From: Armatimonadota bacterium | Lineage (GTDB): Bacteria > Armatimonadota > SYMT01 | Direction of reading: 5' to 3' | DNA: 64,000 nucleotides | Assembly: GCA_046292385.1 (NCBI GenBank) | Contig: JBKBRF010000016.1 | Coordinates: forward strand, 32,001-96,000 | Shown here: piece after piece, positions 4,761-45,804 of the stretch | Layout: the number at the start of each line of letters is the position of its first letter | How positions within the stretch are numbered: the first letter of the stretch is position 1 | Program-made: the position numbers and the translations under genes | Notes under the pieces: generated by a model | What the model was told of the DNA's origin: nothing | What the model saw: only the letters and a program-made list of their open reading frames with translations | Databases searched by the model: none

Positions 4761-5084
4761 GATGCCGCAACCAAACTCACGGCGGCGGGAGAATGCTCGC
4801 TTAGTCGAGACCGTCATCGCTTCGGGAGTCCACCCCGCGCCCTCCCCACCCGGAGCGGCCCTGCCGCGTGGGTGGCCCTTCGCGGCCCTTTCACCCTCCG
4901 GCTGCGCCTCCGCTAGCGGGCGCTGCGGGCGTGCCCATCGGTTGGCTCCGCTCCGCGTTCGTGGCCTGCGGCAGTGGCGATGCGGCGACTCACGGGCCGC
5001 TCCGGGCGGCTCAAGCGACCACCCCTACCAGGGGTGGTCACAAGTGAACCCCTCCAGCCCTGCCTCCGGCAGCGCCTCCGGGCT
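4761..5084 (-). repeat. Structured dispersed element, copy A
   Basis: Reverse complement is collinear and highly similar to 45426-45750. Confidence 0.85.
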
Positions 5085-5173
5085 TCGCAGATCCCTACGC
5101 CCGGGGCATCAAGCCGGTCGTGCTTGCACCGGCTTAAGACAACCCGACGGCGGCCAACCGTGCCCAAACCAGA

Positions 5174-5438
5174 GGCGCCCGGAGGGCGCCAGTTGTGACC
5201 ACCCCTGGCAGGGGTGGTAGCTCGAAGGGTCGGGAGGCAGCCCGTGAGCTCCCCTGTCGGCACGGGTAACGCTTCCTGGCGCGGGAAGAGCTTCTCGACG
5301 TGAGCTCCCGCAGCGGCCTGCTAACGGAGCGCAGCGGAGTGTGAAAAGGCCGCGGAGGGCCTTCGTCGCGGGAGGGCTGCCTCCCGGCACAAGGGCTCGG
5401 GGTCGGGTTTCGGGATCGAAGCTGCATCTCGCAGAGAA
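5174..5438 (+). repeat. Structured dispersed element, copy B
   Basis: TTGTGACCACCCCT..AGGGGTGGT hairpin, CGGGAGGCAGCCC/GGGCTGCCTCCCG stem, GCTA..GTGAAA; closest to 31241-31510. Confidence 0.8.
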
Positions 5439-5688
5439 GCAAAACGCCTCGAGACTGGCCCCTCCCGCTTCGCACGGCCCACGCGCGATGACCGCCGGCG
5501 GATCTGCGCATCGCGGCAAGATCCTCGCGGTGAGTAGTACAAAAGAACCGGCACAGACGAGCCCTCGAGAAGGCCGCTCTCCCGGAACCGGTCCACGGTT
5601 CCGCAGGGCCGGCCCAGTCGTGGGTTCTAATCTGTGTCGGTTCTTCTGTGTCCGAGCTGTGTCCCTCTGTGTCGGAAAAGCAGCGCGC

Positions 5689-6120
5689 CTAGCTTCCGGC
5701 GCTCGCTACGCTGCCCTCGAACTCGGTGTGCTCCGTAATCGCCGCTGCCAGCGCTTCGGGGTTCGTCTTCGCGGGATCGTACACCACCTCTACCGTCTGG
5801 GTGGTGACGTCTGCCTTCATCTTCTGGAATCCATCGACCCTGACCAGGGCCTTCTCCACCTTAGGCGGTCAGCCGGCCGGTCAGGTCATGCCCTTCGCGT
5901 TCAGGACTGCGGACTCCATTCCTTCCGGCACTTCCAGGGTGGTGGTGCTGGCGGTCTGCGTCGTGTTCGGCGTCTCCGAGGTCTCCGGCGTGTTCCCCGC
6001 GGGGGAGTTCGCCGCTGACGACTCGGAGGTCTGCGGCTGCTCGGTGGGAGCGCATCCCACCAGGCCGCCGAAGAGGATCGCCGCCGCGCCGAGTGCCAGC
6101 AGGGTCGAGCTCAATCGCAT
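5689..6120 (-). CDS. HMA-domain (MerP/CopZ-like) lipoprotein, putative selenoprotein with two in-frame UGA codons
   Basis: AGGAG RBS, lipobox LVGC, ...NAKGMT-UGA-PAG-UGA-PPKVEKALVRVDGFQKMKADVTTQTVEVVYDPAKTNPEALAAAI... to TAG at 5689-5691; 143 codons. Confidence 0.8.
5836..5851 (-). promoter_or_regulatory. Candidate bacterial SECIS hairpin
   Basis: GGCCCU-GGUC-AGGGUC stem-loop; loop starts 23 and 35 nt after the two UGA codons. Confidence 0.6.
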
Positions 6121-6222
6121 CGTTGCTCCTCTCTGCTTCGCGTCTCGTGTCAAACGAGCTTCCAAGAAGAGTTTACGAGCATTGGCAATTCTTATGACCC
6201 GGGCTGCGGGAGATCGGGAAGC

Positions 6223-6678
6223 TCACTGGTCGGAACGGGCGCCGGCCGGCTTCTCCTGCTCCACGTGCGCGGAGTCTCCGATGTGCTGACCGCCGCTCGG
6301 GTCGAGCTCTCCGGGGCTGCGGGAGATCGAGGCCTTCCGGCTCATCCTGGCGTTCAACGTCTGCAGGAGCAGCTCCGGATTGGTGCGCGCCGGGTCGTAC
6401 ACCACCCGGGCGGTCTCCCGCTCCAGGTCCGCCTTCAGCCCCTTGTAGCCGTCTACCCGCTCCAGGAGCAGCTCCACCCGCTCCGACTCCGCCTTCAGTC
6501 CCGGCACCTTCAACTCCACCACGGAGAGGCCGGGCAGCGTGTTGAGTGCTACGGGACCGGCCGCAGGCTCGGCGGCATTCACGCCCGGTGAGCCCTGAGA
6601 GACGCATCCGCCAAGAGCGGCGGCAGAGAGAACAGCGGCAGAGAGCACGGCAACGGCAAGGGGCTTCCGGAACGACAT
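6223..6678 (-). CDS. HMA-like lipoprotein lacking the CxxC motif (paralogue of 5689-6120)
   Basis: Lipobox LGGC; RVDGYKGLKADLERETARVVYDPARTNPELL aligns with the neighbour. Confidence 0.75.
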   Translation of the reverse strand: MSFRKPLAVAVLSAAVLSAAALGGCVSQGSPGVNAAEPAAGPVALNTLPGLSVVELKVPGLKAESERVELLLERVDGYKGLKADLERETARVVYDPARTNPELLLQTLNARMSRKASISRSPGELDPSGGQHIGDSAHVEQEKPAGARSDQ

Positions 6679-6774
6679 CCACTACTCCTTCGACGGGGGA
6701 ACTGCGCCCGCACGACCACGACCACCCATATAGAGGACGAGGCTGCCCTCCAGATACGTGGAGAAGTTGTGCCG

Positions 6775-8271
6775 CTACCGGGTGACGGCAGGCTCGGGCT
6801 GGAGCTGCTCCTCGTCTGCCGCAGCCTCGGGAGCCGCCGGGAGGCGCACGCGGAAGGTGCTGCCGCGGCCCGCCTCGCTGTCGACCGAGATCTCCCCGTC
6901 GTGCGCTTCCACCGCCCACCGGGTAATGCTGAGCCCCAGGCCCGCGCCGCCCGCGGTGCGCGCGCGGCCCTCGTCCACCCGGTAGAAACGGTCGAAGATG
7001 TGCGGAAGATGCGCTTCGGGGATGCCGATCCCGGTGTCGCGCACTTCCAGGAGCGCGGTTCCGTCCTCTCGGCGCAGGCTTACGGTCACCGTGCCGCCCG
7101 CGGGCGTGTACTTGATGCCGTTGCTCACCAGGTTCACCAGCACCTGGCGGAGCCAGAGCGGGTCGCCGGAGATGGTGACGTCGTCCACCTCCTCGAACTC
7201 CACCATCACCCCCTGCCGGCGCGCCAGCGGCTCCACGTCTTCCACGGTCGCCACCGTGAGTGAGGAGAGCTCCACCGGCTCCCGGCGGATCAGCGCCTGG
7301 CCGGAGTCGGCGCGAGCGAGGAGCAGCAGGCTCTCCACCACCTCCGACATCCGCTCCGCGGAGTCGAGGATCGTCCGCAGGGAGCGCTGGTACTCCTCCG
7401 GCGAGGCAGGACGGCGCAGCGCCACTTCCGCCTCGCCGCGGATCACCGTGAGCGGGGTCTTCAGCTCGTGGGAGGCGTCGGCACTGAACTGACGCACCTG
7501 TTGAAAGCTGCGGTCGAGCCGCGCGATCATCTGGTCGAATGCGCGGGCGAGCCTGCCGATCTCGTCATCCGCGCCCGGGTGCTCGATACGGCGCCGGAGA
7601 TTGCTCCCCTGGATGTCGAGCGCGGTGCGGGTGAGGTCGTCGACCCGCCGGAGCGTGCGCCCGATCACCAGCCAGTTGCCTGCCAGCGCCAGCAGGAAGA
7701 CGAGCGGTGTCAGCAGGATCAGCACCCAGCCGGCCCGCTGGAGCGCCGCCTCCACCCCCTCCAGAGAGGTCCCCGCCTGGACCAGGAACGGGATCCGCTC
7801 GCCCATGCGCACCGGCACGGTCACGATCCGGACCGGGTGCTCGGCCAGGCCCGGGATCGTCTCGATGGTGGTCAGCCCCTGGAGCCCGCGGCGCAGGGCG
7901 TCCGGCGTCACCGGGAGCGGGTGGCTGTTGAGCCCGTCGGAGCGCTCGTAGACGTTTCCCTGCGGATCGACCACCTGCACGTACCGGCCCCACGACCGGA
8001 GCTCGTTGGTGAGGAAGAACGGCTGCCCGGCCTCGGCGGCGCGCGGGGTAAAGGGCCGGCCGGTCATGGCGGCCTGGGTCTCCAGGCGGTAGAGCCGGGT
8101 GGCGATCTGCCGCGCGCTGGCGTCTGCGTGCTCCCGGAGCGCGGCATCGGCGCGGGAGTGGAGCACGCCGATGAGGAGGACGTACGTCAAGCCGGCCAGC
8201 GCCACCAGCGTGAGCGCCATCAGGCCGGCGTGCCACGCGCAGAGCTGCGCGCGGAGCCCTCGCAGCCTCAC
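6775..8271 (-). CDS. Sensor histidine kinase (HAMP-HisKA-HATPase; CusS/CzcS-like)
   Basis: Two TM helices, FSADASHELKTPL, NLVSNGIKY, DTGIG, FDRFYR, GAGLGL; GTG start overlaps the regulator stop. Confidence 0.92.
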   Translation of the reverse strand: MRLRGLRAQLCAWHAGLMALTLVALAGLTYVLLIGVLHSRADAALREHADASARQIATRLYRLETQAAMTGRPFTPRAAEAGQPFFLTNELRSWGRYVQVVDPQGNVYERSDGLNSHPLPVTPDALRRGLQGLTTIETIPGLAEHPVRIVTVPVRMGERIPFLVQAGTSLEGVEAALQRAGWVLILLTPLVFLLALAGNWLVIGRTLRRVDDLTRTALDIQGSNLRRRIEHPGADDEIGRLARAFDQMIARLDRSFQQVRQFSADASHELKTPLTVIRGEAEVALRRPASPEEYQRSLRTILDSAERMSEVVESLLLLARADSGQALIRREPVELSSLTVATVEDVEPLARRQGVMVEFEEVDDVTISGDPLWLRQVLVNLVSNGIKYTPAGGTVTVSLRREDGTALLEVRDTGIGIPEAHLPHIFDRFYRVDEGRARTAGGAGLGLSITRWAVEAHDGEISVDSEAGRGSTFRVRLPAAPEAAADEEQLQPEPAVTR

Positions 8272-8945
8272 GCCGGCCCCTCCTTCAGCATGTAGCCGAC
8301 GCCGCGGACCGTCTGCAGCAGCTTGCGGTCCGACTTCGCGTCGACTTTCTTCCGCAGGAAGTTCATGTAAACCTCGAGCACGTTCGACGGGGTCTCGAAG
8401 TCGTACCCCCACACCTGCTCCAGCAGCTCCGCGCGCGTGAGAACCCGCTCGGGGTTGCGCATCAGGTACTCCAGCAGGGTGTACTCCTTGTTCGTCAGCT
8501 CGATCCGCTTTCCGGCGCGGGTGGCGGCGCGCGTGGCCGGGTCGACGGTCAGGTCGGCGTAGGCGAGCGCCGCCATCCGCGCCGCGGTGCTGCGCCGGAG
8601 CAGCGCCCGCAGCCGCGCCTGGAGCTCCTCGAAGGCGAACGGCTTCGGCAGGTAGTCGTCGCAGCCGGCGTCGAGCCCCTCGATCCGGTCGTCCAGCCCG
8701 CCGCGGGCGGTGAGGGCCAGCACCGGCGTGTCCTGCTTGCGCCGCCGCAGCTCCCGCACCACTTCCAGGCCGTTGATGCCCGGAAGCATGATGTCGAGCA
8801 CCACCGCGTCGTAATGACTCGCCGTCAGGTGCTCCAGCGCGTCCTCGCCGGTGTGGACGACGTCGACCTCCAGCGAGTCGGCCTGGAGCCCCCGCTGGAT
8901 CAACGACGCCACGCTCACCTCATCTTCAACTACGAGAATTCGCAT
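8268..8945 (-). CDS. OmpR-family response regulator (CusR/CzcR-like)
   Basis: MRILVVEDE, LDIMLP, DDYLPKPF, LLQTVRGVGY. Confidence 0.95.
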   Translation of the reverse strand: MRILVVEDEVSVASLIQRGLQADSLEVDVVHTGEDALEHLTASHYDAVVLDIMLPGINGLEVVRELRRRKQDTPVLALTARGGLDDRIEGLDAGCDDYLPKPFAFEELQARLRALLRRSTAARMAALAYADLTVDPATRAATRAGKRIELTNKEYTLLEYLMRNPERVLTRAELLEQVWGYDFETPSNVLEVYMNFLRKKVDAKSDRKLLQTVRGVGYMLKEGPA

Positions 8946-9151
8946 CTCTTTTCTCACTCGACGCGATACTGCTCCGATGCGCCACCCTGGCGCGGCCAGG
9001 CACCCTCACCCGCGTGTGCTCCTCGCGGCGCCCGGACGCCGGGCCCTGAAGGACCCGGCTGTCTCTCTGGAAAGCACCCTGAAGGGCGCTAATCGAACCA
9101 CAGCCCCCGCACAACGTTCTCCCCGTCTCCCAGTCCCTCTGTCTCTCCGTC

Positions 9152-10831
9152 TCAGGCACCCTTGCCCTCGCGCAGCTCCAGCACCTGGTCTGCTTCCGCG
9201 GCGCCGAAGCTCTCTACCGTGCCGTTCGGCCAGCGGACCTCGATGTCATCCACCCGGACTGCACCGCCGAGGCCAAACGTGGGCCAGAGGCTGTTCTGCG
9301 AGAGGTAGCTGGAGCCGCTGCGCACCATACGGCTCTGCGTCTGCCCGCCGGCGCGGATCCGCACGGAAGCCCCAATCGCACTCCGGTTTCCCCTGCGGCC
9401 GCGCAGACGGAGCTGGAGCCAGTGCGCGGAGGGTCGCCCCGACTGCCGCAGCAGCGCCGCCCTGCCGCCGCTCGTGGTGACCAGGATGTCCAGGTCGCCG
9501 TCCCCGTCGATGTCTCCGTAGGCCGCGCCGCGGGCCACGCGCGGCACGTTCAGCGCGCCCGCGGCGGAGGTGACGTCCGCGTACCGCCCGTCGCCCTGGT
9601 TCCGGAACAGGAGCGCGGCCTGGGCATAGCTCACGCCGCTGCTGCGCACCCCGGCATCGTCCTGGATGTGACCGTTCGCGACGAAGATGTCCTGGAGTCC
9701 GTCCAGGTCGGCGTCGAAGAAGAAGGTGCCGAAGCCGAGGTACCGCTGGCTCGGCGTGCCGATGCCGGCCCGCGCTGCCACGTCCATGAAGAGCCCCCGC
9801 TCGTCCCGGCGATAGAGGCTGAGCTGCTCTCCGGCGAAGTTGGTGATCAGGATGCCGTCCTGCCCGGTGTTGGCGTAGTCCGCCACGTCGATTCCCATCC
9901 CCGCCTTGGGGGCGCCGCCTTCCGCCACCGCCATGCCGGCCTGGACCCCCACCTCTTTGAACTTGCCGTTCCCCTGGTTGTGGAAGAGGAAGTTCGGGAC
10001 CATGTCGTTGCTTACCGCCAGATCGACCCACCCGTCCCGGTCGAAGTCGCAGAGCGCCACCCCGAGCGCCTTGGTGGCCGGCGCGTTGGCGACGCCGCTC
10101 TCCACCGAGACGTCCGTGAACCGGCCGCCCTCGTTCCGGAAGAGCTGGCACGCCTCCCCCTCGAAGCGGTCCGGCCGCGCGTACGAGCGGTTCACCCCGT
10201 CCAGCGAGAAGAACGGCTCGTTCTCCCGCGACCACCGCACGTAATGACAGACGAAGAGATCCAGCTTTCCGTCGCGGTTGTAATCGAGCCAGGCGGCGCT
10301 CGTCGGAAAGCCGGGCGTCCGGAGGCCCGTACGACCCGTCACGTCCTCGAAGCGACGGCCCCCCACGTTGCGGAGCAGCCGCGACCCGCCGAGGGCGGTG
10401 ATCAGCACGTCTTCGTAGCCGTCGTCGTCGTAGTCGCCCGCCGCCACGCCCATCCCGTAGAGGCCGCCGGGCACCCCGAATGCCTGAGTCGCATCCCGGA
10501 AGCGGCCATCCCCCTCGTTCAGGTAGAGCCGCGACTGCCCCCTTGCACCCCCGTCTCCCGGCCAGGAGGTGGAATCGACCAGGAACAGGTCGAGACGGCC
10601 GTCGCGGTTCACGTCGACCAGCGCGCAGCCGGAGCCCATCGTCTCCGGCAGGTGCTTCCGGCCGGCGGCGCCGTTCGTGTGGCGGAAGCGGATGCCGGCC
10701 TGCTCCGTCACGTCGTCGAAGTGGATCACCGCGGCCGCCGGCGTGGGAGCCGGCCGCAGCGGCGCCGGGTCCTGGGCGCAGCCCGCCAGCGCGAGGACGA
10801 GCCCGAGTCCGGGGAGCGCTCGCGAGATCAT
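9152..10831 (-). CDS. CRTAC1-family FG-GAP/VCBS repeat lipoprotein with ASPIC/UnbV domain
   Basis: Lipobox LAGC, ETMGSG, repeated DxxxDGxxDL, C-terminal GSSYLSQ...FGLG...VRWPNG. Confidence 0.9.
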   Translation of the reverse strand: MISRALPGLGLVLALAGCAQDPAPLRPAPTPAAAVIHFDDVTEQAGIRFRHTNGAAGRKHLPETMGSGCALVDVNRDGRLDLFLVDSTSWPGDGGARGQSRLYLNEGDGRFRDATQAFGVPGGLYGMGVAAGDYDDDGYEDVLITALGGSRLLRNVGGRRFEDVTGRTGLRTPGFPTSAAWLDYNRDGKLDLFVCHYVRWSRENEPFFSLDGVNRSYARPDRFEGEACQLFRNEGGRFTDVSVESGVANAPATKALGVALCDFDRDGWVDLAVSNDMVPNFLFHNQGNGKFKEVGVQAGMAVAEGGAPKAGMGIDVADYANTGQDGILITNFAGEQLSLYRRDERGLFMDVAARAGIGTPSQRYLGFGTFFFDADLDGLQDIFVANGHIQDDAGVRSSGVSYAQAALLFRNQGDGRYADVTSAAGALNVPRVARGAAYGDIDGDGDLDILVTTSGGRAALLRQSGRPSAHWLQLRLRGRRGNRSAIGASVRIRAGGQTQSRMVRSGSSYLSQNSLWPTFGLGGAVRVDDIEVRWPNGTVESFGAAEADQVLELREGKGA

Positions 10832-13104: not shown

Positions 13105-13297
13105 GGTCCGATACGGTTTACGCAGGACTGGCCCCCGGCGTCCGCGAGCTTAACGAAGGCTAAGACTGCAAGCCCCGGAACGAACCGGCGGCGGTGGGCA
13201 GGACTCCCCGCGGCGGCTGCCGTATTGAGAGACCGGCGGGCGCGAGACCGCCGCGCCGGCACGACCTCGGGCCGCTGAACTCTGGAGGAACGCTGCA

Positions 13298-29092: not shown

Positions 29093-31108
29093 TCAATTCT
29101 TCGGGGCCAGCCACTCCTCCAGCGCCCCGGCCTCCGCCGGGCCGTTCGAGAGCTCCAGCGCGCGGCTGCCTTCCAGCGCGTAGACCTCTCGCACCCAGGC
29201 GGTGGAGGGCGTCTCTCCCGCGTTGAAGAGGTAGAGCGGCTGCGGCGCGCTGAGCGCGAGGTAGGAGCGCATTCCGCCGTACCGCAGCGCCGCGGGCAGC
29301 GCCATCGGGTGGTTGACCGGCATGTCGGTGGTCCACTCGAACCCGGCGGTGTCGGCGGCGGTACGGCGGATCTTGCCGGCGAACGGCCGCGCCAGGAGCA
29401 CCAGCGGGCCCGCCTCGCCTACGCCGAGCAGGTTGACGCGGTCAATGCCACCGGCCAGCTCTTTCGCCTGCGCCTGCGCGTAGGCGACGCCGTTCAGCAC
29501 GTCCTGCACCCGCTGGGCCAGCACCGGCTTGTTGTAGGTGGTGTAGTACTGCGAAGACTGTCGCTGCCGCGCGGCCTCGGGCTGGCCGCCCAGGAAGGTA
29601 TCGAGCAGCAGGACGGCCTGTCCCCGCCCGATCAGCCCGGAGATCAGCGGCTTCAAGGTCGCGTCCTCCCGCGCCGCCTTCCAGCCGCCCGGGTGGACCA
29701 CCACCGTCACCGCCTTCAGCTTCTGCTCCACCGGCGCCAGCCAGAGCGCTTCCCGCACGCCGGACTCCCCCTCCCGTCCCAGGGTCATCACCACCCCGGA
29801 AGCGCCGCTGGGCGGCGACTGCGCCGGTCCCAGGTGGCTTGCCTTCACCGCGCCGGGCGCCGGCAGCTCGCACTGGAGAGCGGTGCGGAGGCCGGTCTCC
29901 AGCACTTCGCGGGAGCCGCGCCACTGCTCGCGCGAGCGCGGCGCCAGCGCCTGGACCTGCTCGTCGACCACGCCCCGCAAGAACCCCTTCAGCCGCGCCG
30001 GGTTCAGGGCGCGGTCCGGACGCGGGTGCTCCGCGCTCCAGGTGGAGATCGCCGTCTCCAGCTCCGGCACGAAGGTCGCCTCCTTCACCGGCTCCGGCTG
30101 CTTCTCGCCCCACAGGTGCTTGCGGAAGAAGGTGTAGACCGATTCGCGGCTCGCCTGGTTGTAGTTGTGGTCGGCCTTGTGCACTACCGCGTCGAGCCGG
30201 TCCTCCGCGCCGAAGAGCCGGTAGACCGCGCGGATCTCCGGCTCGCCCTTTTCCATGATCTGGCTGGTCCAGTCGCCCGTCGCGCCGATCAGGATCTGCG
30301 GCCGGGGCGCCACCATGGCGGCGAACTCCACGTTGTCGGTCCCGATCCGCAGCAGCGGCGCGTTCTCGCAGGAGCAGCCGCCCTGGAAGTGGTGCGAGAC
30401 CATGCAGACCGGTGCCGCCACGCGCACCCGTTCGTCCACCGCGGAGAGCAGAAAGGTCTGCGTGCCGCCGCCGCTCTCGCCGGTGCAGGCGACGCGGGCC
30501 GGATCGACCTCCGGCAGTGAGAGGAGCCAGTCGAGCGCGCGAATGCTGTTCCAGAGCTGCAGCCCCGGCAGGTTCATTCCGATGGCCGCCAGCTCCGGGT
30601 CCATGAAGGCGTGTCCGAACGCCGCCGAGTCGCCGTAGCCGACCATGTCGTACTGGAAGGCGATCGCGCCCATTCGCGCCTGTCCCGCGCAGCGGGCCTG
30701 CACGTCGGCATTGAAGCGGCCCTCGCCCCAGTGGCCGTGCGGGTTGAGGATGCCGGGCACCTTTCCGGTCACCGCGGCGGGCCGGTAGAGATTACCGGAT
30801 AGGAAGAAGCCGGGCAGCGTCTCCAGCACGACTTTCTCGACCGTGTAGCCTTCCCGCTCGATCTTGCCGTAAACGCGGGCGTTCAGCGGCGTCTTTGGCG
30901 GCAGCGGGTAGAGACCGCAGGAGACCAGGATCTGCTCCCGCAGCTCCTGACGCCGGGCGAGCCACTCTTTGCGGGTGGCAGGCGGCTTGAAGTCGCTCCC
31001 CTGCTGGTTCGTCCGCACCGGGCTCCCCGTGGATGGTGTTTGGAACGCCGCCGCACCCAAGGGGACCCCCGCGGCCAGAACTACAGAAAGAATTGCCAGC
31101 AAACGCAT
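29093..31108 (-). CDS. Secreted alpha/beta hydrolase (acetylxylan esterase-like)
   Basis: Signal peptide, GNLYRP, PHGHW, TGESGGGTQT, HNYN. Confidence 0.85.
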   Translation of the reverse strand: MRLLAILSVVLAAGVPLGAAAFQTPSTGSPVRTNQQGSDFKPPATRKEWLARRQELREQILVSCGLYPLPPKTPLNARVYGKIEREGYTVEKVVLETLPGFFLSGNLYRPAAVTGKVPGILNPHGHWGEGRFNADVQARCAGQARMGAIAFQYDMVGYGDSAAFGHAFMDPELAAIGMNLPGLQLWNSIRALDWLLSLPEVDPARVACTGESGGGTQTFLLSAVDERVRVAAPVCMVSHHFQGGCSCENAPLLRIGTDNVEFAAMVAPRPQILIGATGDWTSQIMEKGEPEIRAVYRLFGAEDRLDAVVHKADHNYNQASRESVYTFFRKHLWGEKQPEPVKEATFVPELETAISTWSAEHPRPDRALNPARLKGFLRGVVDEQVQALAPRSREQWRGSREVLETGLRTALQCELPAPGAVKASHLGPAQSPPSGASGVVMTLGREGESGVREALWLAPVEQKLKAVTVVVHPGGWKAAREDATLKPLISGLIGRGQAVLLLDTFLGGQPEAARQRQSSQYYTTYNKPVLAQRVQDVLNGVAYAQAQAKELAGGIDRVNLLGVGEAGPLVLLARPFAGKIRRTAADTAGFEWTTDMPVNHPMALPAALRYGGMRSYLALSAPQPLYLFNAGETPSTAWVREVYALEGSRALELSNGPAEAGALEEWLAPKN

Positions 31109-31240: not shown

Positions 31241-31510
31241 GGCCGTTCGGAGGCGGAGCCGGAGGACGGCACTTGTGAACCCTCCTGGGCGCAGGGGGGT
31301 TCGCTCGAAGGGCCGGGAGGCAGCCCGTGAACCCCGCCTGTGTCGTGGTAGGTCGGACTGGCGCGGGCAGAGCCGAACGGCGTGCGCTCCCGGAGCGGCC
31401 TGCTAGCGCCGGAGGCGCGTGAAAAGGCTGCGGAGGGCCTCCGTCGCGGGAGGGCTGCCTCCCGGCACAAGGGCGCGGGGTCGGACCCACGGGACGATGC
31501 TCCCGTGCCG
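31241..31510 (+). repeat. Structured dispersed element, copy C
   Basis: ACTTGTGAAC hairpin, CCGGGAGGCAGCCC/GGGCTGCCTCCCGG stem, GCTA..GTGAAA; similar to 5174-5438. Confidence 0.8.
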
Positions 31511-31531: not shown

Positions 31532-32266
31532 ATGGAGATTCGTGGAAGAACCGCCCTGGTCACCGGCGGCGCCGTGCGGGTAGGGAAGGCGATTGCGCTG
31601 GAGCTGGCGCGCCGTGGGATGCACGTGGGGATCACCTACCGCAGCTCCGCGGCGGAAGCGGAGAGCACCGTCGAAGAGCTGCGCGCGCTGGGCGTTCAGG
31701 CGCATGCGGAGCGGTGCGAGCTCCGCAGCCCGGAAGAGATCGAGCGCGCGGTCCGCGGGATCGAGGCCGCGCTGGGACCGGTCGACGTGCTGGTGAACAG
31801 CGCCTCCATGTTCGAGCGGACTCCCCTCGCGGAGGCGTCGCTCGACGATTGGGACGCGCACCTGGAGACGAACCTCCGCGCCCCGTGGCTGCTCGCCAGG
31901 GCGGTCGGCCCCGGCATGGCGGCCCGCGGGGAGGGGGTGATCGTGAATATTCTCGACGTGGCGGCGGAGCGGCCGTTCAAAGACTACACCCCCTACTCCG
32001 CCAGCAAAGCCGGCCTCGCGTCGGTCACCATGGGCCTGGCGCGGGACCTGGCGCCGCACGTGCGAGTGAATGCCGTCGCCCCGGGGGCGGTGCTCTGGGG
32101 CAAGCACGCGAACGAAGAGTACCGCCGCTCCGTCCTCGCCAAGACGCCGCTCGGGCGCGTCGGCAGCGCGGAGGACGTGGCGCGCGCCGTCGCGTTCCTG
32201 GCGGAAAGCGGCGACTTCATGACCGGCAGCACCATCACCGTCGACGGAGGCCGCCGGCTCGTCTAA
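31532..32266 (+). CDS. SDR oxidoreductase, pteridine reductase/FolM-like
   Basis: TGGAVRVG, NSAS, YSASK, VNAVAPG, VDGGR. Confidence 0.85.
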   Translation: MEIRGRTALVTGGAVRVGKAIALELARRGMHVGITYRSSAAEAESTVEELRALGVQAHAERCELRSPEEIERAVRGIEAALGPVDVLVNSASMFERTPLAEASLDDWDAHLETNLRAPWLLARAVGPGMAARGEGVIVNILDVAAERPFKDYTPYSASKAGLASVTMGLARDLAPHVRVNAVAPGAVLWGKHANEEYRRSVLAKTPLGRVGSAEDVARAVAFLAESGDFMTGSTITVDGGRRLV

Positions 32267-32270
32267 CGGA

Positions 32271-37296: not shown

Positions 37297-37566
37297 ATGG
37301 AGACGAGAGACGACCGCGAGCCCCTGGGTGAGCGCGTGCTGACGCCGACCGAAGAAGAGACCGACCGGGAGGAGCGGGACGATGCCGCTTCCCCGCAGCG
37401 CGCTACCGGAACCCTGGGCCACGACACGGTAGGCGTGACGCCGACCGGAGACCTGGGCCCGGGCTCGGCTTCCGGAGACCTGACGGGCGGTACTCCGGTC
37501 GGCATCGAGAACACCGACTCGACCGCCGGGGCGGAGTCGGTACGAGGCGCCGCGGGCCGGGAGTAG
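37297..37566 (+). CDS. Small acidic, low-complexity hypothetical protein
   Basis: AGGAGGT RBS; METRDDREPLGERVLTPTEEE... Confidence 0.7.
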   Translation: METRDDREPLGERVLTPTEEETDREERDDAASPQRATGTLGHDTVGVTPTGDLGPGSASGDLTGGTPVGIENTDSTAGAESVRGAAGRE

Positions 37567-37581
37567 GCGCGCCGGGTCAGG

Positions 37582-38346
37582 CTAGACGGCGTGGCGGCCG
37601 CCGTCGACCATCAGGTTGGTCCCGGTGATGTAGGAGGCATCTCCGGAGGCCAGGAACGCGATCGCGGCGGCGATCTCGGCAGGATCCGCCGGCCGCCCGA
37701 GCAGGCCGGTGGGGCTGTTGTATAACTCCGACGGGTCGGAACCTGCACGCTCCGCGCGGCGAGTGTGGAACTCCGTCACGGTGAACCCCGGACAGACACT
37801 ATTGACGCGCAGGCCATGCGGCGCCAGCTCGATCGCCAGGCTGCGGGCCAGGCTCACGAGAGCCGCCTTGGTGGCGTCGTAGATCGGCATCTCGGCGCGG
37901 CCGACCACCGCGTGCACGGAGGAAACCAGGACGAAGGCACCCCGGTCGCCAGCGGTCAGCATCGCGCGCGCCGCTTCTGCGCAGGTGAGGGCGGTGCCGC
38001 GCAGGTTGACATCCAGCAGCTCCCGCCAGTCCGCCTCGGAGGCGTTCAGCACCGAGCCGAACGCGCGGGCGCCGGCATTCGCCACCACCACGTCGAGGCG
38101 GCCCCACCGGTCATAAGCGGCCCGGACGGCACTCCGGCAAACCGCCTCGTCGGCAACGGTGCCGGGGACCGGCTCCACCTCCGCGCCGCCTGCTCTTAGC
38201 TCGGCTTCCGCCGCGGAGAGGTCGGCGGCGTCCCGGTCGACCAGGACCAACCGCGCCCCCTCCGCAGCCAGCCGGCGGGCCGTGGCCCGGCCGATTCCGG
38301 CGCCTCCCCCGGTGATGATCGCGACCTGGTCCCGGAACCGCTGCAT
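37582..38346 (-). CDS. SDR family oxidoreductase
   Basis: TGGGAGIG, ANAG, YDATK, VNSVCPG, VDGG. Confidence 0.92.
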   Translation of the reverse strand: MQRFRDQVAIITGGGAGIGRATARRLAAEGARLVLVDRDAADLSAAEAELRAGGAEVEPVPGTVADEAVCRSAVRAAYDRWGRLDVVVANAGARAFGSVLNASEADWRELLDVNLRGTALTCAEAARAMLTAGDRGAFVLVSSVHAVVGRAEMPIYDATKAALVSLARSLAIELAPHGLRVNSVCPGFTVTEFHTRRAERAGSDPSELYNSPTGLLGRPADPAEIAAAIAFLASGDASYITGTNLMVDGGRHAV

Positions 38347-38537
38347 AGGTACCTCAACGGACGCATCCCTGTCTCCCTCCCGTTCGAGCGCCCTCCGCTC
38401 GGGCACCTTCCTGCCCGCCGGAAAGGTATGGGGGCGCTGTGGGGAGAACTTAGCGGCACGCTCGGCCGAAGAGAGCCTCGCTCTCCTGCCGAGAATGAGG
38501 GTGAGGCCCCTGCATTCGGCACCGAGGAGGTCACACG

Positions 38538-39788
38538 TTGCCGGTCCGACACCCGATCGCTCCCCTGCTGCTCGCCGCCGCGCTGGTGCCCGCCGCGCTG
38601 GGGCCGGCTCCCGGCTCCGCGCAGAGCGAGAGACCTGCCCGGTATATCGTGGAGCTGCATTCCGGGCCGGACGGAGCCACGGAGGGCGCCCTCGCTCCGG
38701 CGCGGGTCCGGGCGACTCCGGTGCAGGTCTACTCGCGGACCCTCCGCGGCTTCGCGGCCGATCTCCTGCCGCAGCAGGTGGCGGCGCTGCAGCGCGATCC
38801 TTCCGTCCGCCGCGTCTGGCGCGACCAGCCGGTCAGTTTGAGTCCCGCGCCCCGCCAGTTGCTCTCCGCCGCCGGGAAAAGGAAGACGAAAGCCAAAGGC
38901 CAGAAGGTCCCGACCGGCGTGCGCCGGATCGGAGGCCTGAAGAGCGCGACCGCCGCCATCGACGGCATCGACTCGCCGCTGGACGTCGACGTGGCGGTGA
39001 TCGACACGGGCGTCGACCTCGACCATCCGGACCTCAACGTGGTCGGCGGCTTCAGTGTCTTCTCCGGCGACGCCGACGATCCGGAGGGGCACGGGACGCA
39101 CGTGGCCGGCACCATTGGCGCCCGCGATAACCGGCTGGGGGTGGTCGGAGTTGCCCCGGGAGCGCGCATCTGGTCGGTGCGGGTCCTGAACCAGCAGGGG
39201 CAGGGCTCCTGGTCCGGCGTGATCGCCGGGCTGGAGTGGGTGGCTGCGCACGCCGATACGATCGAGGTCGCGAACCTGAGCCTGGGCGGCCCGATGAGCG
39301 ACGATACACCGCTGCGAGTGGCAGTCGACGCGCTCGTCGCTGCCGGCGTCACGGTGGTCGCCGCCGCCGGAAACGCCGGGCAAGACGTGTCGACGTGGGT
39401 GCCGGCGAAGTTCGAGAGCGTGCTGTGCGTCTCTGCCCTGGCGGACAAGAACGGCAAGGCCGGCAAGAGCGCCGGGGTGTTCAAGTTCGGCAGCCGGGAG
39501 CGGGACGAGCGCTTCGCGTCGTTCAGCAATTGGGGCAGCGAGGTCGACCTGATCGCGCCGGGCGTCAAGATCCTCTCCACCTACAAGCACGGCCAGTACG
39601 CCTGGATCTCCGGCACCAGTCAGGCCGCGCCCCACGCGGCCGGCGCCGCCGCGCTCTACCTGGCGCGGCACCCGGGGGCCACCCCGGCCGAGGTCCGCGA
39701 GGCATTGGTGAACAGGGCTGTCGTCTTTTCCCGCCGGAACGATCCGGACGGCGTCTACGAGCCGTGCCTGGACGTCGCCGCACTTTAG
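38538..39788 (+). CDS. Subtilisin-like S8 serine peptidase with I9-like propeptide
   Basis: AGGAGG RBS, signal peptide, VAVIDTG, HGTHVAG, AAGN, GTSQAAPH. Confidence 0.93.
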   Translation: MPVRHPIAPLLLAAALVPAALGPAPGSAQSERPARYIVELHSGPDGATEGALAPARVRATPVQVYSRTLRGFAADLLPQQVAALQRDPSVRRVWRDQPVSLSPAPRQLLSAAGKRKTKAKGQKVPTGVRRIGGLKSATAAIDGIDSPLDVDVAVIDTGVDLDHPDLNVVGGFSVFSGDADDPEGHGTHVAGTIGARDNRLGVVGVAPGARIWSVRVLNQQGQGSWSGVIAGLEWVAAHADTIEVANLSLGGPMSDDTPLRVAVDALVAAGVTVVAAAGNAGQDVSTWVPAKFESVLCVSALADKNGKAGKSAGVFKFGSRERDERFASFSNWGSEVDLIAPGVKILSTYKHGQYAWISGTSQAAPHAAGAAALYLARHPGATPAEVREALVNRAVVFSRRNDPDGVYEPCLDVAAL

Positions 39789-39869
39789 TGGTGTGTCCAG
39801 CTACTTCTGATCTGTGGGAGTGGGAGCAAGGGAGAGTGGGGGCGTGGGCGACCGGCTCCCGTTTGTTTT

Positions 39870-39954
39870 CAGGTTGCAGGTTAACAGGTTGCAGGTTCCG
39901 AACCCCGCCTCCCGTGTTCCCAACCTACAACTTGCCAACTTGCAAACCTGCAAC
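39870..39954. repeat. Inverted arms of CAGGTTG/CAACCTG units, no gene inside
   Basis: CAGGTTGCAGGTTAACAGGTTGCAGGTT...CAACCTACAACTTGCCAACTTGCAAACCTGCAAC. Confidence 0.75.
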
Positions 39955-40267
39955 AGACGTCCCCCTCCATCCCGGACTGACGGAGTACTAGCCTGCCGTC
40001 CGGAGGCCATGGAGCAAGTAGGAGTAAAGCCCGGGGCTCGCTAACTGTGTGAGGGAGCGCCTCTTGCTTCCTCCCCGGCCGGACTGCTCGTCCGGTCCGG
40101 AAGTCGGCCGGCTCACAGGCGAGCTCGTCCCCACGCTCGCTTTGCCGTTCTCCCAAGCTGCTCCGCGGCGGATCCGTCGGACTTGCGAGTCCGGCCGGAC
40201 CCGCGTACTAAAGCTCGCCGGCGAATGACCGGCACCCGTCCCAGGGAAAGGATTGGAGACACCGTTC

Positions 40268-41260
40268 ATGTTCCGAAAGCTACTGCTGGCAGTGCCGCTG
40301 CTTGCCGGCCTGCTCCTCACCGCTGCCCCGGTGGAAGCACGCCCCAGCCGGTCGAGCCTCACGATTCAGTCGACTCCGGCGAAGGCCTCCGTGCTCCTGG
40401 ACGGAGCTCCGGCTGGTAGGACCCCCCTGACGCTTAAAAATGTGCCGCCGGGGGAGCACACTCTGGTGTTCTCCAAGCCGGGCTACGAGACCGTCACGAA
40501 AGAAATCGTCTACGAGGGCGGAAAGTCGAAGGTCAGGGTCAGGCTGAAGAAGACCCCCAAGCTCTCCGACGAGGAGCGCGCCGCGCGAGCCGGCATCCTC
40601 CGCCGCGAGATCGGCAACGTGCGAGAGCTGCGGTCCATCCTCGGCGCCGCGCTGTACGGTACCAGCCTCTCCGGGCAGGCGCTGCAAGATCCGTTTACCG
40701 GCTACTACGTCAGCATCTCGACCGGGTTCGACGGCCAGAACCGCCCGACGTTGACGATCGCGTTCTACCTGAATAAGCAGTTGACGCAGTCTGCCGGCTC
40801 GATGACGGTGGCGCTCAGCGCCTTCGCGTCCGAGGCGGACTATCAGTTCACCGCCGGGAGACTGGCCGGCGCCTCCGGGCATCTGAGCGCCGCCCCCGCG
40901 GGCCTGACCGGATACCTGATCGACGGCAGCGGCACGATGTCGGACGGCTCCGAGTGGACCGCGCTCCTGCAGGTCACGTTGGGCGACGAAGGCGTTTCGA
41001 TCACCGGGACGGCGTCGGTCACGCCGGACGGCGGCACCCCCAGCGAGTGGGCGCTGACGGTGGAGCCGGTGGCCTCCGTTGCCACGATCACGACCCCCGA
41101 GGGTTTCACGATCGTCTTCAACTCGCAGGACGGTGTCTCCAGCGGGACCCTCTCCCAGCCGGAGAGCGGAGTGGTGCTGGCGACCTTCTACCTGGATAAG
41201 AATGGCGACCTCGTCGTCGTGTTCTCGGACGGGCGGCGACAGGTGATCGACCTGTCGTAA
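40268..41260 (+). CDS. Secreted PEGA-domain protein
   Basis: Signal peptide; LTIQSTPAKASVLLDG...GRTPL...PGEHTL...KPGY. Confidence 0.8.
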   Translation: MFRKLLLAVPLLAGLLLTAAPVEARPSRSSLTIQSTPAKASVLLDGAPAGRTPLTLKNVPPGEHTLVFSKPGYETVTKEIVYEGGKSKVRVRLKKTPKLSDEERAARAGILRREIGNVRELRSILGAALYGTSLSGQALQDPFTGYYVSISTGFDGQNRPTLTIAFYLNKQLTQSAGSMTVALSAFASEADYQFTAGRLAGASGHLSAAPAGLTGYLIDGSGTMSDGSEWTALLQVTLGDEGVSITGTASVTPDGGTPSEWALTVEPVASVATITTPEGFTIVFNSQDGVSSGTLSQPESGVVLATFYLDKNGDLVVVFSDGRRQVIDLS

Positions 41261-41468
41261 CCCCGGTTCCGCAGACGCGGAGCCGCGTCCAGGTCGGGAC
41301 TCGGCTCCGCGTCACGCACGCCTCGGCTGTGCAGGTATTCCCTGGAAAGCTGCACAGTCGAGGCGTTCTGATCCCGGCCGGGTGGTGCCTCCCCGGGCGG
41401 TTGGGAACTCAGACCGGCCGCTGCAGCGGATAGGCCATGTGGCCCGTACCCGCCCTGGAGGAGGCTCC

Positions 41469-41918
41469 ATGATCCGAAACCTGAGCGTGCTCACTCTCTC
41501 CCTAGCCGTCTGTCTCCCCGCTACGGCGGCGCCCTCGACGGTCAAGGTCGACGCGCGGGGGCGGTTGGTGATCCCCGCGGCGGTCGTAAAGAAGCTCGGC
41601 GTGGCTCCCGCAAAAGACGGCCTGGTGGAGCTGCAGTTCGCCGACGTGCAGCCAAAGGAACCGGAGGAGCCGAAGGGGACCGGAGGGGAGCACTCGCATC
41701 CGCTGCCGAAGCCCCGCCCGCCGCAGACGTGGGTCCACCTGCAGCGGGACGGCTCGGTGCTCCTCGCGCGGACCCGGGTGAGCACTTACCAGCTTTACGT
41801 GCCGGGGAAGCCCGGGACCACCTACGTCTTGACCGGCGAGAAGAACCGGATTATCCTCCGCAGCCCTGCACCTAAGGCCGCTCCCGCCCGCGGCTCAAGC
41901 AAGCCCGGCCGGAGATAG
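41469..41918 (+). CDS. Secreted hypothetical protein with an AbrB/MraZ-like motif
   Basis: GGAGGAGG RBS, signal peptide, VKVDARGRLVIPAAVVKKLG. Confidence 0.65.
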   Translation: MIRNLSVLTLSLAVCLPATAAPSTVKVDARGRLVIPAAVVKKLGVAPAKDGLVELQFADVQPKEPEEPKGTGGEHSHPLPKPRPPQTWVHLQRDGSVLLARTRVSTYQLYVPGKPGTTYVLTGEKNRIILRSPAPKAAPARGSSKPGRR

Positions 41919-41927
41919 ACTTAGCCT

Positions 41928-43013
41928 ATGGCAGGCAGCACTTTCGGCACCGCGTTCCGCGTGAGCACCTGGGGCGAGTCGCACGGCCCCGCCGTCGGGT
42001 GCGTCGTGGACGGGTGCCCGCCCGGTATCCCCCTCCCCCTGGAGCTGATCCAGGCGGACCTCGACCGCCGGCGTCCGGGTCAGAGTCACATCACCACCCA
42101 ACGCCGCGAGGGCGACGAAGTGGAGATCCTCTCCGGCGTCTTCGAGGGGGTGACCACCGGCACCCCGATCGGGATGCTGGTGCGGAACGCGGACCAGCGC
42201 TCCAAAGACTACAGCGAGCTGAAGGAGCTGTATCGCCCCAGCCACGCGGACTACACCTACGCGGCGAAGTACGGGGTGCGCGACTACCGGGGCGGCGGCC
42301 GGGCTTCCTATCGCGAGGCGGTGGGACGAGTGGCGGCCGGCGCCGTGGCGCGGCAGCTCCTCTCCCACCGGTGCGGCGCGGAGATCATCGGCTACGTGCT
42401 GCAGGTTGCGGAGATCCGGGGGGAGGTAGACCCTTCGGCGGTGACCCGGCCGGACGTGGAGGCGAGTATCGTCCGGTGCCCGGACGCAGCCGCGGCGGAG
42501 CGGATGATCTCGGCCATCGACGCGGCCCGGCGGGACGGCGACTCGCTGGGCGGGATCGTGGAGGTGGTGGCGCGCGGCGTCCCCGCGGGGCTGGGAGAGC
42601 CGGTCTTCGACAAGCTGACCGCCGACTTCGCCAAGGCGCTCATGTCGATCCCCGCCGCCCGCGGGTTCGAGGTCGGCGAGGGCTTCGGAAGCATTCACTT
42701 CCGCGGGTCCAGCCACAATGACCCGTTCGTCTCCCGCGAGGGTCGCGTGCGGACGGAGACGAACCGCTCCGGCGGCATCCAGGGAGGGATCTCCAACGGA
42801 GAGGAGATCCTGCTGCGGGTCGCCTTCAAGCCGACCGCCACGATCATGCGGGAGCAGCGGACCGTCTCCACGTCCGGCGAGGAAGTCACCTTCCAGGCAC
42901 GGGGGCGGCACGATCCGTGTGTCCTCCCGCGCGCCGTGGCCGCGGTCGAGGCGATGGTGGCGCTGGTCCTGGCCGACCACCTGCTCCGCCAGGAAGCGAA
43001 CGTCCGCCGTTAA
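41928..43013 (+). CDS. aroC: Chorismate synthase
   Basis: [37 protein letters not shown]. Confidence 0.97.
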
Positions 43014-43079
43014 AGCACCGATTCGGTCCCCTGCCGCGTCTTATCGGTAGGGGGCGTAAAGTGGGCTACGGAGGGAACG

Positions 43080-43739
43080 ATGATACGCGGGTACCCGGCT
43101 CTGCGAAGCTCACCGGCGCGGCGCGGCTTCACGCTGGTCGAGCTGCTGGTGGTGATCGCGATCATCGCCATCCTCGCGGCGATTCTCTTCCCGGTGTTCG
43201 CCCAGGCGCGAGAGAAGGCGCGGCAAACGAGCTGCGCCAACAACCTGCGCCAGATCGGCATGGCGAGTGCCCTCTACCGGAGCGATTACGACGAGTGCTA
43301 CGTTCCGACCGAGGCGGGCGGGCTGCCGTGGCTGAGCGTGATCCCGGGCACCGACGGGCTGCTGAACCCCTACGTGCGGATGAGCACGCCGCTCCAGTGT
43401 CCCTCCCGGCGGGCGCCGAAGGCGCGCTATGCCCTGAACGTCTGGAAGGGCGTTCACTTCGACCGCCGCGAGACCTCTCCCCAGGGGCAGCCGGATAGCG
43501 CCGTGCCGCGCCCTTCCACGACGCTGCTCGCCTGGGAGCACCAGGTCGACGCGATCGACTGCCTGACCGGCCAGGACGGCGGCGACCCGCTCCACCCCGC
43601 GCCCACGGCGGGCGACACGCACTGGGACACCGCCCACAGCGGCGGCTTCAACGCGCTCTGGTGCGACGGGCACGTCAAGCGCATGCGCTACACGCAGCTC
43701 CTGCGGACGTTCTTCACCATCGAAGAAGATCCGGAATGA
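43080..43739 (+). CDS. Prepilin-type N-terminal cleavage / H-X9-DG (DUF1559-like) protein
   Basis: [46 protein letters not shown]. Confidence 0.92.
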
Positions 43740-44073
43740 GCGACTGAGTGGGCGCGAAGGAGAGTGAGTGGATCGGGCTGGCAGTTTTTCAGGTCGGGAA
43801 GTCCCGGAGCCTGCATACCGGGAGGCACCGGCCAACCTGCAGCAGGCCGCACCCATTCGCCCACTCTCCCTTGCCTCCCCCGCGCCTGCGATTCCCGCCT
43901 CCGAGCGAATACCCGCTCCCGTGTGGGGGCGACCGGGGGGAGGTGCGTGCATTTCGGAGACGCAACTTTCCCTGTCGGCGGGGGAACACACTCACGTTCC
44001 GGCCGGTTCCGCTCGTCTTGATCTCTGTAGGGAACGAACGAGCGCCGCCGCGAACGGCGGAAGGAGAGCGCGA

Positions 44074-45315
44074 ATGGCGCGAGTGAGCGTGTGGGTGCGA
44101 GTGGCAGGCCTGGTCGCCGGAGCGGGGCTCCTCGCGGCGGGCGCGGCGCGGGCGGAGGACTGGCCGCACTGGCGCGGTCCGCGCCGCGACGGGATCTCCC
44201 GGGAAGCGGGCCTGGTGAAGAGCTGGCCGGCCTCCGGCCCGAAGATCGCCTGGGAGAAGGATCTTACCGGAGGATGGTCGACCCCGAGCGTGGTCGGCGG
44301 CAAGCTGTACGTCACCACGGAGGACAACAAAGAGGAGATCGTCCTCTGTCTCGACGCCGCCACCGGCAAGCCGGTCTGGGAATATCGCTATCCCTGCGAT
44401 TACGACCAGCATCCCTCGCTCGACCAGCGCTTCAAGAGCGGTCCGCGCTCCTCCCCCACCGTCGATGACGGCCACATCTACACCCTCGGCACCACCGGGC
44501 TCCTCCACTGCCTGGACGCTGCCAGCGGCAAGCCGGTGTGGAAGACCGACCTGCTGGCAATGGCAAAGACGGAAGCGCCGATCGCCGGCTACTGCAGCTC
44601 GCCGATGATCGAGGGCGACACCCTCTACGTAAACCCCGGCGGCGCCGGGACTTCGGTTGCCGCGCTGAACAAGAAGGACGGCCGCGTGCTCTGGCAGACC
44701 GGCGACGACGCGATGGGCTACGCCACGCCGGTCCTGCTGGAGAGCCAGGGAGTGCGGCAGGTCCTCTACTTCACCGGCGGCGGCCTCGTCTCCGTTTCGC
44801 CCACCGATGGGAAGCCGCTCTGGCGGTTCGACTGGAAGACGCCGTTCGATCTGAACGTCGCTACGCCGATCCACCACAACGGGGAGGTCTTCATCTCCAC
44901 CAACTATGGGCGCGGCTGCGCGCTGCTGCGGCTCAAGGGCGCGGCCCAGCCGGAAGAGGTCTACCGCAGCGCCAACATGCAGAACCACTTCGCCACGTCC
45001 GTGCTCTGGGACGGCCACCTCTACGGCCTGAGCAACGACCGCCTCCGCTGCGTGGAGTGGGCGACCGGCGAGGTGAAGTGGGACCAGCGCGGCATCGGCC
45101 GGGGCAGCGTGATGATCGCGGACGGCCAGCTCATCATCCTGGGCGAGCGCGGCGAGCTGATCCTGGCGGAGCTCTCCCCCATCGCCTTCACCGAGAAGGC
45201 TCGCTGGAGGGCACTCAACGCCCCCTGCTGGTCGCCGCCCTCCCTGGCGAACGGCCTCCTTTACATCCGCAATGAGGACAAGTTGATCGCCGTCGACATG
45301 CGCGCCGGACAGTAG
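44074..45315 (+). CDS. PQQ-binding-like beta-propeller protein
   Basis: Signal peptide, DWPHWRGP, CLDAATGKPVW repeats. Confidence 0.9.
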   Translation: MARVSVWVRVAGLVAGAGLLAAGAARAEDWPHWRGPRRDGISREAGLVKSWPASGPKIAWEKDLTGGWSTPSVVGGKLYVTTEDNKEEIVLCLDAATGKPVWEYRYPCDYDQHPSLDQRFKSGPRSSPTVDDGHIYTLGTTGLLHCLDAASGKPVWKTDLLAMAKTEAPIAGYCSSPMIEGDTLYVNPGGAGTSVAALNKKDGRVLWQTGDDAMGYATPVLLESQGVRQVLYFTGGGLVSVSPTDGKPLWRFDWKTPFDLNVATPIHHNGEVFISTNYGRGCALLRLKGAAQPEEVYRSANMQNHFATSVLWDGHLYGLSNDRLRCVEWATGEVKWDQRGIGRGSVMIADGQLIILGERGELILAELSPIAFTEKARWRALNAPCWSPPSLANGLLYIRNEDKLIAVDMRAGQ

Positions 45316-45804
45316 GTTGCAGGTTGGCAGGTTGCAAGTTCCAGGTATGCCGACCGCTTGCTGTGCTACGCGCCGTGAGAATCTAGTCGGGACGCGCAGC
45401 TTCTGCGCGGGGAGTGCTCCTAAGGAGCCCGGAAGCGCTGCCGGAGGCAGGGCGGGAGGGCTTCACTTGTGACCACCCCTCGGGAGGGGTGGTCGCTTGA
45501 GCCGCCCGGAGCGGCCCGTGAACCGTCGTCTCGCTGGAGACGCCCCTTTCGGACGCGGAACGCAGCGCGCCGGGGAGCACGCCCGCAGCGCCCGCTAGCG
45601 CAGGCGAAGCCGGAGCGTGAAAGGGCCGTGGAGGGCCCCCCACGTGGGAGGGCCGCTCCGGGTGGGGAGGGCGCGGGGTGGACGCCCGGAGCGATGACGG
45701 TCTCGCCCAGAGAATCTTTCTCCCGCCGCAGTGAGTTTGGTTCCGGCATCGGCCGCGCTCTGGTTCTCACCTGCAACCTGTCAACCTGCAAACCTTCAAA
45801 CTAC
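45314..45804. repeat. CAGGTTG/CAACCTG inverted arms (45314-45346 / 45769-45804) enclosing structured element D
   Basis: AGGTTGCAGGTTGGCAGGTTGCAAGTT ... ACCTGCAACCTGTCAACCTGCAAACCT. Confidence 0.75.
45426..45750 (+). repeat. Structured dispersed element, copy D
   Basis: Collinear with the reverse complement of 4761-5084. Confidence 0.85.

Follow-up and report, generated by a model that had tools for sequence, protein, structure and literature searches.

The interspersed repeats known from bacteria either consist of simple palindromes, such as repetitive extragenic palindromes (REPs) and MITEs (miniature inverted-repeat transposable elements), or bring with them a known nuclease's guide RNA, as do palindrome-associated transposable elements (PATEs). 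REP palindromes are 20-40 nt long and are used as Y and Z units in bacterial interspersed mosaic elements (BIMEs), and roles as stabiliser, terminator or insulator have been proposed for REPs and BIMEs. According to Meers et al. (2023; PMC10055086), PATEs are gene-less derivatives of IS200/IS605 elements that "often encode" scaffolds of guide RNAs on which TnpB draws in trans. Here we describe a family of structured modules from a stretch of 64,000 nucleotides (the window; C16:32001-96000) of the genome of a soil Armatimonadota bacterium (G000; 7.04 Mb in 91 contigs). The module family joins transposon-like ends with a 270-nt, nine-helix covarying fold, and a known RNA-guided partner was not found in the genomes that hold it. 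We tentatively read these sequences as lineage-restricted non-autonomous mobile elements of one Armatimonadota family, whose folded module would be needed for their own spread. Full-text literature searching listed no description of an interspersed non-autonomous element with such an unusually elaborate, covarying and probably RNA module.

A family of structured intergenic modules

BLAST searches with the four window copies (A to D) gave 158 merged places in G000, an iterated nhmmer profile gave 151 matches, 135 of them near full length (spanning at least 200 of the 289 profile positions), and a covariance model of the module (R1), used for G000 and its relatives, gave 137. The family takes up roughly 0.5% of the genome and is diverse, with a median pairwise identity of 0.63 among 124 full copies, three large groups at 70% identity (52, 38 and 21 copies) besides small ones, and 83 copies that are mutually more than 17% different. 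Besides the two subtypes (A/D and B/C) recognised by the first-pass annotation of the window, a third subfamily exists. By our gene calls (5190 genes, 80% coverage; home-made caller that relies on codon-position GC), none of the 135 near-full-length copies overlaps a gene and all are intergenic, and convergent and divergent spacers are over-represented relative to the genome. With respect to the genes beside them, their orientations are balanced (37/32/32/28; a further six copies, at contig ends, lack one neighbour), which supports the earlier judgement that a riboswitch is unlikely; a riboswitch or leader was indeed rejected because there is no fixed orientation to neighbouring genes.

Among the 124 full copies there are 26 adjacent pairs, all of them head to head (5' ends facing) and none tail to tail, with gaps of 56-107 nt in 25 pairs and of 241 nt in one, and with the facing 5' hairpins (P0, below) about 30-60 nt apart. 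The arms of a pair are 48-75% identical, and in no pair do both arms fall inside one 80%-identity cluster.

The taxonomic range of the module is narrow. When R1 was run over 41 genomes, G000 included, the scoring covering up to 85 candidates per genome, the holders were G000, G005 (14 matches) and G006 (3 matches), all of one family; these are three of the eight genomes of the order that were searched, none of 33 other genomes of the phylum gave a match, and four of six family relatives lack the element. G005, which belongs to another genus, has the same architecture with head-to-head pairs at four loci, and the fold is kept across three genera. A scan of GTDB species genomes with an exact motif, which misses diverged copies, brought no further holder to light: it returned ten stretches, six of them loci probably of G005 (8 matches) and four single matches in unrelated organisms, none of which was confirmed by R1 (best 11.9 bits, E 0.098); the same exact scan of viral contigs gave no match. 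Regional clustering was also seen, with about 30 of the 135 copies on the 159-kb contig C8 (6.9-124 kb), eight co-oriented copies at a spacing of 1.4-6 kb on contig C40 (13.6-40 kb), and two clusters of four in G005 (C2:1214-1223 kb; C3:830-837 kb).

To derive the fold, RNAalifold was applied to 124 copies and combined with a mutual-information scan and curation by hand. The module, of about 270 nt, has nine helices (P0-P8), among them helices that reach across about 170 nt: a 5' hairpin (P0) is followed by the motif CACTTGTGA, a 9-bp hairpin (P1), a helix of 5 bp enclosing the body (P2), a long-range stem of 15 bp (P3), and helices P5-P8 around the invariant strands GCUA, GUGAAA and GCGGGAGGGC. 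The outermost, long-range pair of P2 varies between CG (72), UA (25) and AU (23). The P1 loop, P4, P6 and the P8 tip are fixed sites at which hairpins of differing length and sequence interchange, as is usual in functional RNAs. One further helix proposed by RNAalifold, GUG/CGC beside P3, was dropped because the G005 copies vary there without compensation. All four window copies were confirmed in position and strand, and their alignment (330 columns, 74% mean column identity) verified in each of them the shared order that had been read from the window alone, namely TTGTGA and then a hairpin, a covarying long-range stem, the GCTA and GTGAAA strands, and AGGGCnCGGGG.

Covariation, which the first-pass annotation had put forward as a check, proved strong. 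In an alignment of 64 diverse copies with 53 curated pairs (A2), pairing reaches 93.3% of cells where column shuffles give 78.2%, covariation scores 0.405 (shuffles: 0.147), and 520 cells are doubly changed against 181, with 32 pairs altered on both sides. None of 500 shuffles reached the observed values of pairing, double change or covariation, a count that is not a probability since the copies are mutually related. The argument for the fold is carried by the many independent pair types and by controls in which the partners were slid by 1-3 columns, which lowers pairing to 39-48% and the covariation score to 0.04-0.11. Taken by itself, the 3' domain (A3, 19 pairs) is 95.1% paired versus 86.8%. 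No Rfam family matches this fold: Rfam 15 at gathering scores found two tRNAs only in the whole window, at E up to 10 the two matches in 4500-5700 were weak, P10 (E 0.3) and SAM-Chlorobi (E 6.2), both outside the modules, and neither of the omega-RNA families HEARO and IS605-orfB matched the module.

G-U pairs exceed A-C pairs by 327 to 39, and therefore one strand folds, which is the orientation assigned in the first pass. For copy C the minimum free energy is -145 kcal/mol on this strand versus -120 on the opposite one, with z-scores of only -2.1 and -1.7. Its long-range helices and invariant strands at the junctions make RNA the most likely form of the folding strand; single-stranded DNA, at which the first-pass annotation hinted, is the less likely one. 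A look-up in RNA libraries gave three runs, each with 6-7% of the words, in which short contigs, 90-95% alike, lie on parts of the module; these metatranscriptome contigs give neither strand nor ends and are evidence neither for nor against expression of the copies. A CsrA-type sponge, considered for the many GGA motifs, was set aside, as plain hairpins stand in G005 where G000 has its GGAG-rich P0.

Defined ends and probable mobility of the young subfamily

Although copies A and B had been taken as separate, the two are arms of one composite element of about 800 bp (Table 1), which occurs in 12 genome copies, the window's own included, with 81-100% identity over 770-857 nt and common end points. 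Copy D was likewise present, but its extent had to be corrected, as it opens with a piece of the B-type terminus. Seven one-armed A-type copies, D among them, open in this way with about 60 nt of the reverse-complement B-type terminus and have both ends in common; these are deletion forms of the composite. Because the youngest subfamily (A/B/D) thus shares sharp ends at 12 + 7 different loci, we consider the element to be mobile and gene-less, and the original proposal of "a new ncRNA class or a non-autonomous mobile element" is supported by these ends together with the strong covariation and the lack of an Rfam match. All 29 A-tail and 22 B-tail matches in the genome adjoin modules or contig ends, and no gene was seen between two termini among these matches in G000.

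Table 1. Modules and element parts in the window (positions count from its first letter).
Feature	Position	Strand	Description
Composite A-B element	4748..5545		two head-to-head modules; A-type terminus left, B-type right
Arm A	4748..5084	-	module (P0, TTGTGA, P1-P8) and tail of about 75 nt with subterminal hairpin GCGGC-ATCA-GCCGC
Central spacer	5085..5173		separates the 5' ends of the two arms; hairpin AAGCCGGT...ACCGGCTT
Arm B	5174..5438	+	module with short-form P0
B-type tail and terminus	5439..5545	+	hairpin AGAATCT...AGATTCT, then ...GGTGAGTAGTACA(G/A)A; 22 B-tail matches
Copy C	31241..31510	+	lone, older B/C-type module
Copy D	45365..45762 (approximate)	+	one-armed; about 60 nt of B-type terminus (reverse complement), A-type module 45426-45680, A-type tail

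The ends were read from the junctions of the 12 composites and 7 one-armed copies. In the orientation of D the element runs as (TCTGT)-ACTACTCACCGCGAGAATC ... GGTTGCGGCATCAGCCGCGCTG-TG, where the bracketed bases lie outside and the right end reads ...GCGCTG-TG, and each end has a different subterminal hairpin. Arm A terminates ...GCGCTGTG(T) at 4748, while copy D has CTGT immediately outside its left end and a right end of ...GCGCTCTG. Neither terminal inverted repeats nor a target duplication was seen at these junctions; the earlier statement that the copies lack terminal inverted repeats thus stands as far as inverted termini are concerned, yet defined ends are present in the A/B/D subfamily. 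The left-end motif has 35 matches, of which some are false, and the five positions beyond the left end read T21 C27 T25 G29 T21 in them; TCTGT stands outside this end and CTGTG inside the other. In 65-nt flanks CTGT on the same strand occurs 0.52 and 0.60 times per flank, against 0.16 in background intergenic sequence (3-4x), and at least two CTGT are present in 7 of 48 flanks, whereas 1.2% of windows from the background hold as many; for the reverse complement of the motif these flanks show no enrichment.

Asymmetric ends with subterminal hairpins, the lack of inverted repeats and target-site duplications, and TCTGT outside with CTGTG inside suggest a single-strand HUH route such as the 'peel and paste' of IS200/IS605 elements, with the enzyme acting in trans. 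The ends show in this respect what is expected of IS200/IS605 elements and PATEs, as does the target-adjacent motif outside the left end with its related motif at the right end. The element, carrying one module or two head to head, would depend on the module acting as a single strand, most likely an RNA read outward towards the element ends. Only copies with an intact fold would keep multiplying, and the fold would thereby be kept, with selection on the element and not on each resting copy. In the two youngest clusters (18 and 16 copies), stems show just a mild deficit of private changes, with 30 among 2838 paired site-copies and 67 among 4248 unpaired ones, and 15 of the 30 changes in stems break a pair. 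Resting copies thus appear to drift almost freely and subfamilies to differ by compensated pairs, the numbers being small; this fits selection on multiplying lineages, not a per-copy job for the cell.

An orthologous empty site was sought in a metagenome scan with the neighbouring kinase-like protein, in which every relative returned was distant, at 23-50% identity and mostly at 24-36%. Several elements are bordered by tandem arrays that hold the end motif CTGT and are built of 7-10-nt units (AACCTGN; GGAACACAGA / TCTGTGTTCC); such arrays lie, for example, at 4700-4747 and 45763-45810 of the window, near 58835 on C14 and near 16700 on C30 of G000; these arrays may be preferred landing sites or footprints.

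Regarding the surroundings of the window copies, the composite sits between a gene on the + strand (3826-4704) and one on the - strand (5686-6165). The setting between convergent genes, which had been noted for three copies, holds for A, B and D and not for C, which has divergent genes on its two sides, 29093-31018 (-) and 31574-32266 (+); the nearest relatives of C are 77-84% identical, and its ends are undefined. The neighbour at 5686-6165 (-) forms a single frame if two in-frame TGA codons are read through; this frame encodes a lipoprotein signal together with a heavy-metal-associated-like domain, in which GMT-U-PAG-U is the metal motif. Contigs from the RNA libraries of three studies lie on 5624-6135 (two of them are nearly identical), and the predicted product is a candidate double-selenocysteine protein.

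The search for a mover, and alternative readings

Transposase, HUH, reverse transcriptase and nuclease genes, which the first-pass annotation had suggested looking for beside copies, were looked for there and none was found. When flanking open reading frames within 3 kb of the 135 copies were clustered, only large paralogous families came up (5-8 elements each), with no transposase-like neighbour, the clusters being without Pfam annotation. Five Y1 transposase matches are present in G000, the best of them RAYT-like (REP-associated tyrosine transposase), and the flanks of the two best Y1 genes carry hairpins other than those of the element. The RAYT-like one (G000, C51:25840-26420), a 145-aa Y1 (IS200-like) gene, has the hairpin GCGAGGGGTT(GAAA/TTCA)ACCCCTCGC on both flanks; this is how a RAYT lies among the REPs that belong to it, and there is no relation to the structured element.

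Several observations weigh against a mobile element that needs its folded module to spread. TnpB had no match in G000 (PF07282, PF01385), and PF07282 had none in G005, G006, G001, G002 or G004; the RRXRR/IscB-type family (PF14239) was also without a match in G000, which proves little since the same search was silent in each of 14 control genomes. A copy lies within about 1.5 kb at none of 11 Y1 loci (five in G000, six in G005 and G006), and Y1 genes are present in relatives without the element too. The left and right ends of IS200/IS605 elements usually resemble each other, and here the stems GAGAATCT/AGATTCTC and GCGGC/GCCGC, compared by eye, are unlike. Defined ends are established for the young A/B/D subfamily only. 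As to transcription, there are only the short metatranscriptome contigs mentioned above and no sigma-70-like promoter: none was found in the central spacer, and a scan of 4650-5650 gave no sigma-70-like site and one terminator-like site, which is chance level. Finally, orientation was unbiased among 23 elements by gene-strand majority (12 vs 11) and by GC skew (10 vs 13), both weak proxies of replication direction.

The alternative that survives best, although we regard it as unlikely, is a structured RNA that serves the host, the modules being ncRNA genes or cis-acting stabilisers, terminators or insulators that were spread by transposons and are now kept for the cell. Such a role would agree with the intergenic position of all 135 copies, with the fold conserved across three genera, with the regional clusters on C8 and C40, and with the RNA-library contigs that touch modules, strand and ends not being given by them. 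It agrees poorly, however, with the absence of any preferred orientation or distance to genes and of a consistently adjacent gene family, with private mutations that are near neutral and, in stems, break the pair in half of the cases, and with a copy number that goes from 137 to 13 to 1-3 between genera, the element being missing from most of the family relatives.

Rather less probable than a host-serving RNA would be a giant DNA element resembling BIMEs or REP doublets forming hairpins (REPINs), in which a single-stranded DNA fold is recognised by a domesticated RAYT and the head-to-head pair is the replicating unit. The 26 inverted pairs, always head to head and recurring in G005, the Y1 genes of the genome, one of them RAYT-like with REP hairpins of its own, and the tolerance of G-T wobble in DNA hairpins as well are in its favour, as is the targeting of hairpin P1 by an insertion sequence (IS) of the IS110 family, IS621 and ISPpu9/10 likewise targeting REPs. 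Nevertheless, a 270-nt multi-helix junction with invariant unpaired strands is typical of RNA tertiary folds and unlike a short REP palindrome, arms of 48-75% identity make one long REPIN hairpin impossible, copies flank none of the 11 Y1 loci, and the repeat that borders the RAYT-like gene is another one.

We also think it improbable, more so than either of these, that the module supplies the RNA to a mobile system with a protein partner from outside the recognised families. It would then act as a guide- or scaffold-like RNA, read outward across both ends of the element, for an effector in genomes without TnpB, IscB or reverse transcriptase, or else as a catalytic RNA with a part in excising or homing itself.

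Two IS110-family genes are present in G000. The IS110/IS1111-family IS has inverted GATACTGTTGRCGAAATC ends, a full copy at C6 (about 73.8-75.4 kb), and ends at most G000 contig ends, for example at C51:49224-49485, C32:80648-80912, C22:111606-111983 and C76:1-343. It is inserted in the P1 loop of the module (CCACCCCTGGCGA-IS-TGGCGAGGGGTGG), 10 of 47 IS-end matches abutting a P1 half, and these insertions therefore account for truncated copies at contig ends and for much of the fragmentation of the assembly. About 30 of the 47 IS ends lie in a second repeated target (...GGAGTGACGCGCTTGCG-IS-CTTGCGCGGCCCTTC..., for example C6:73829 and C6 (-) 126082), which from its sequence seems to be a further family of interspersed hairpin repeats, with a loop (CTTGCG) that resembles the P1 loop CTGGCG. 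That the element derives from this IS, with the module as a bridge- or seek-RNA-like guide of the recombinase and CTGT as crossover core, is very improbable: IS110-family genes are present, the IS is evidently highly multicopy from its place at most contig ends, and CTGT stands in direct orientation at both junctions, much as IS492 is flanked by CTTGT, but R1 matched neither the IS locus nor the 1.4-kb IS contig (best 11 bits, E 0.063, filters off), the inverted IS ends are unlike the element termini, and with the P1 loop as its target the IS is a lodger in the element and not its parent.

On the preferred reading, that of a mobile element dependent on its fold, either an uncharacterised protein would read the module RNA or the complex fold itself would be required for DNA mobility, and the approximately 135 natural variants form a ready-made mutational series.

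Comparison with known systems

Several classes of structured or mobile sequence share single features with the element. The omega-RNAs of TnpB, IscB and IsrB go with a cognate RuvC nuclease, which was not found in G000; IS110/IS1111 bridge and seek RNAs lie in the non-coding end of the IS beside the recombinase gene, which is not where the module is placed; and retrons and group II introns call for a reverse transcriptase, for which G000 gave no match (PF00078). The large structured RNAs HEARO, GOLLD, ROOL, raiA and OLE are like the module in size, in their many helices, in invariant junction strands and in covariation, whereas the module differs from them in its roughly 135 copies per genome, its transposon-like ends and its restriction to three genera. 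MITEs of the DDE type (Correia/NEMIS, ERIC) are similarly short, gene-less, intergenic and multicopy and can fold when transcribed, but the element has neither terminal inverted repeats nor a target-site duplication, and its fold is not a simple long hairpin.

With REPs, BIMEs and REPINs the element shares high copy number, strictly intergenic placement, a narrow lineage and the role of target for an IS110-family IS, and its inverted doublets of two unit types, recurrent in the 26 pairs and in G005, are reminiscent of Y and Z REPs. It differs in its unit, which is no short palindrome but a nine-helix structure of about 270 nt with long-range pairs and with arms too diverged to pair mutually, and in that no RAYT gene is flanked by it at any of the 11 Y1 loci.

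From PATEs the element differs as follows: TnpB and IscB genes were not found in the three holder genomes (PF07282 in all three; PF01385 and PF14239 in G000), the module is unmatched by the Rfam omega-RNAs, two outward-facing modules lie at the two ends and stop 75-105 nt before the terminus, and the terminal hairpins are unlike each other, with no matching TnpA found. Set beside PATEs, the element is alike in being gene-less and multicopy, in its asymmetric ends with subterminal hairpins and without inverted repeats or target-site duplication, in a short motif outside one end with a similar one inside the other, and in a strand-specific structured module that points to the element end, as a scaffold followed by a flank-derived guide would. 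PATEs are the closest working model for the element.

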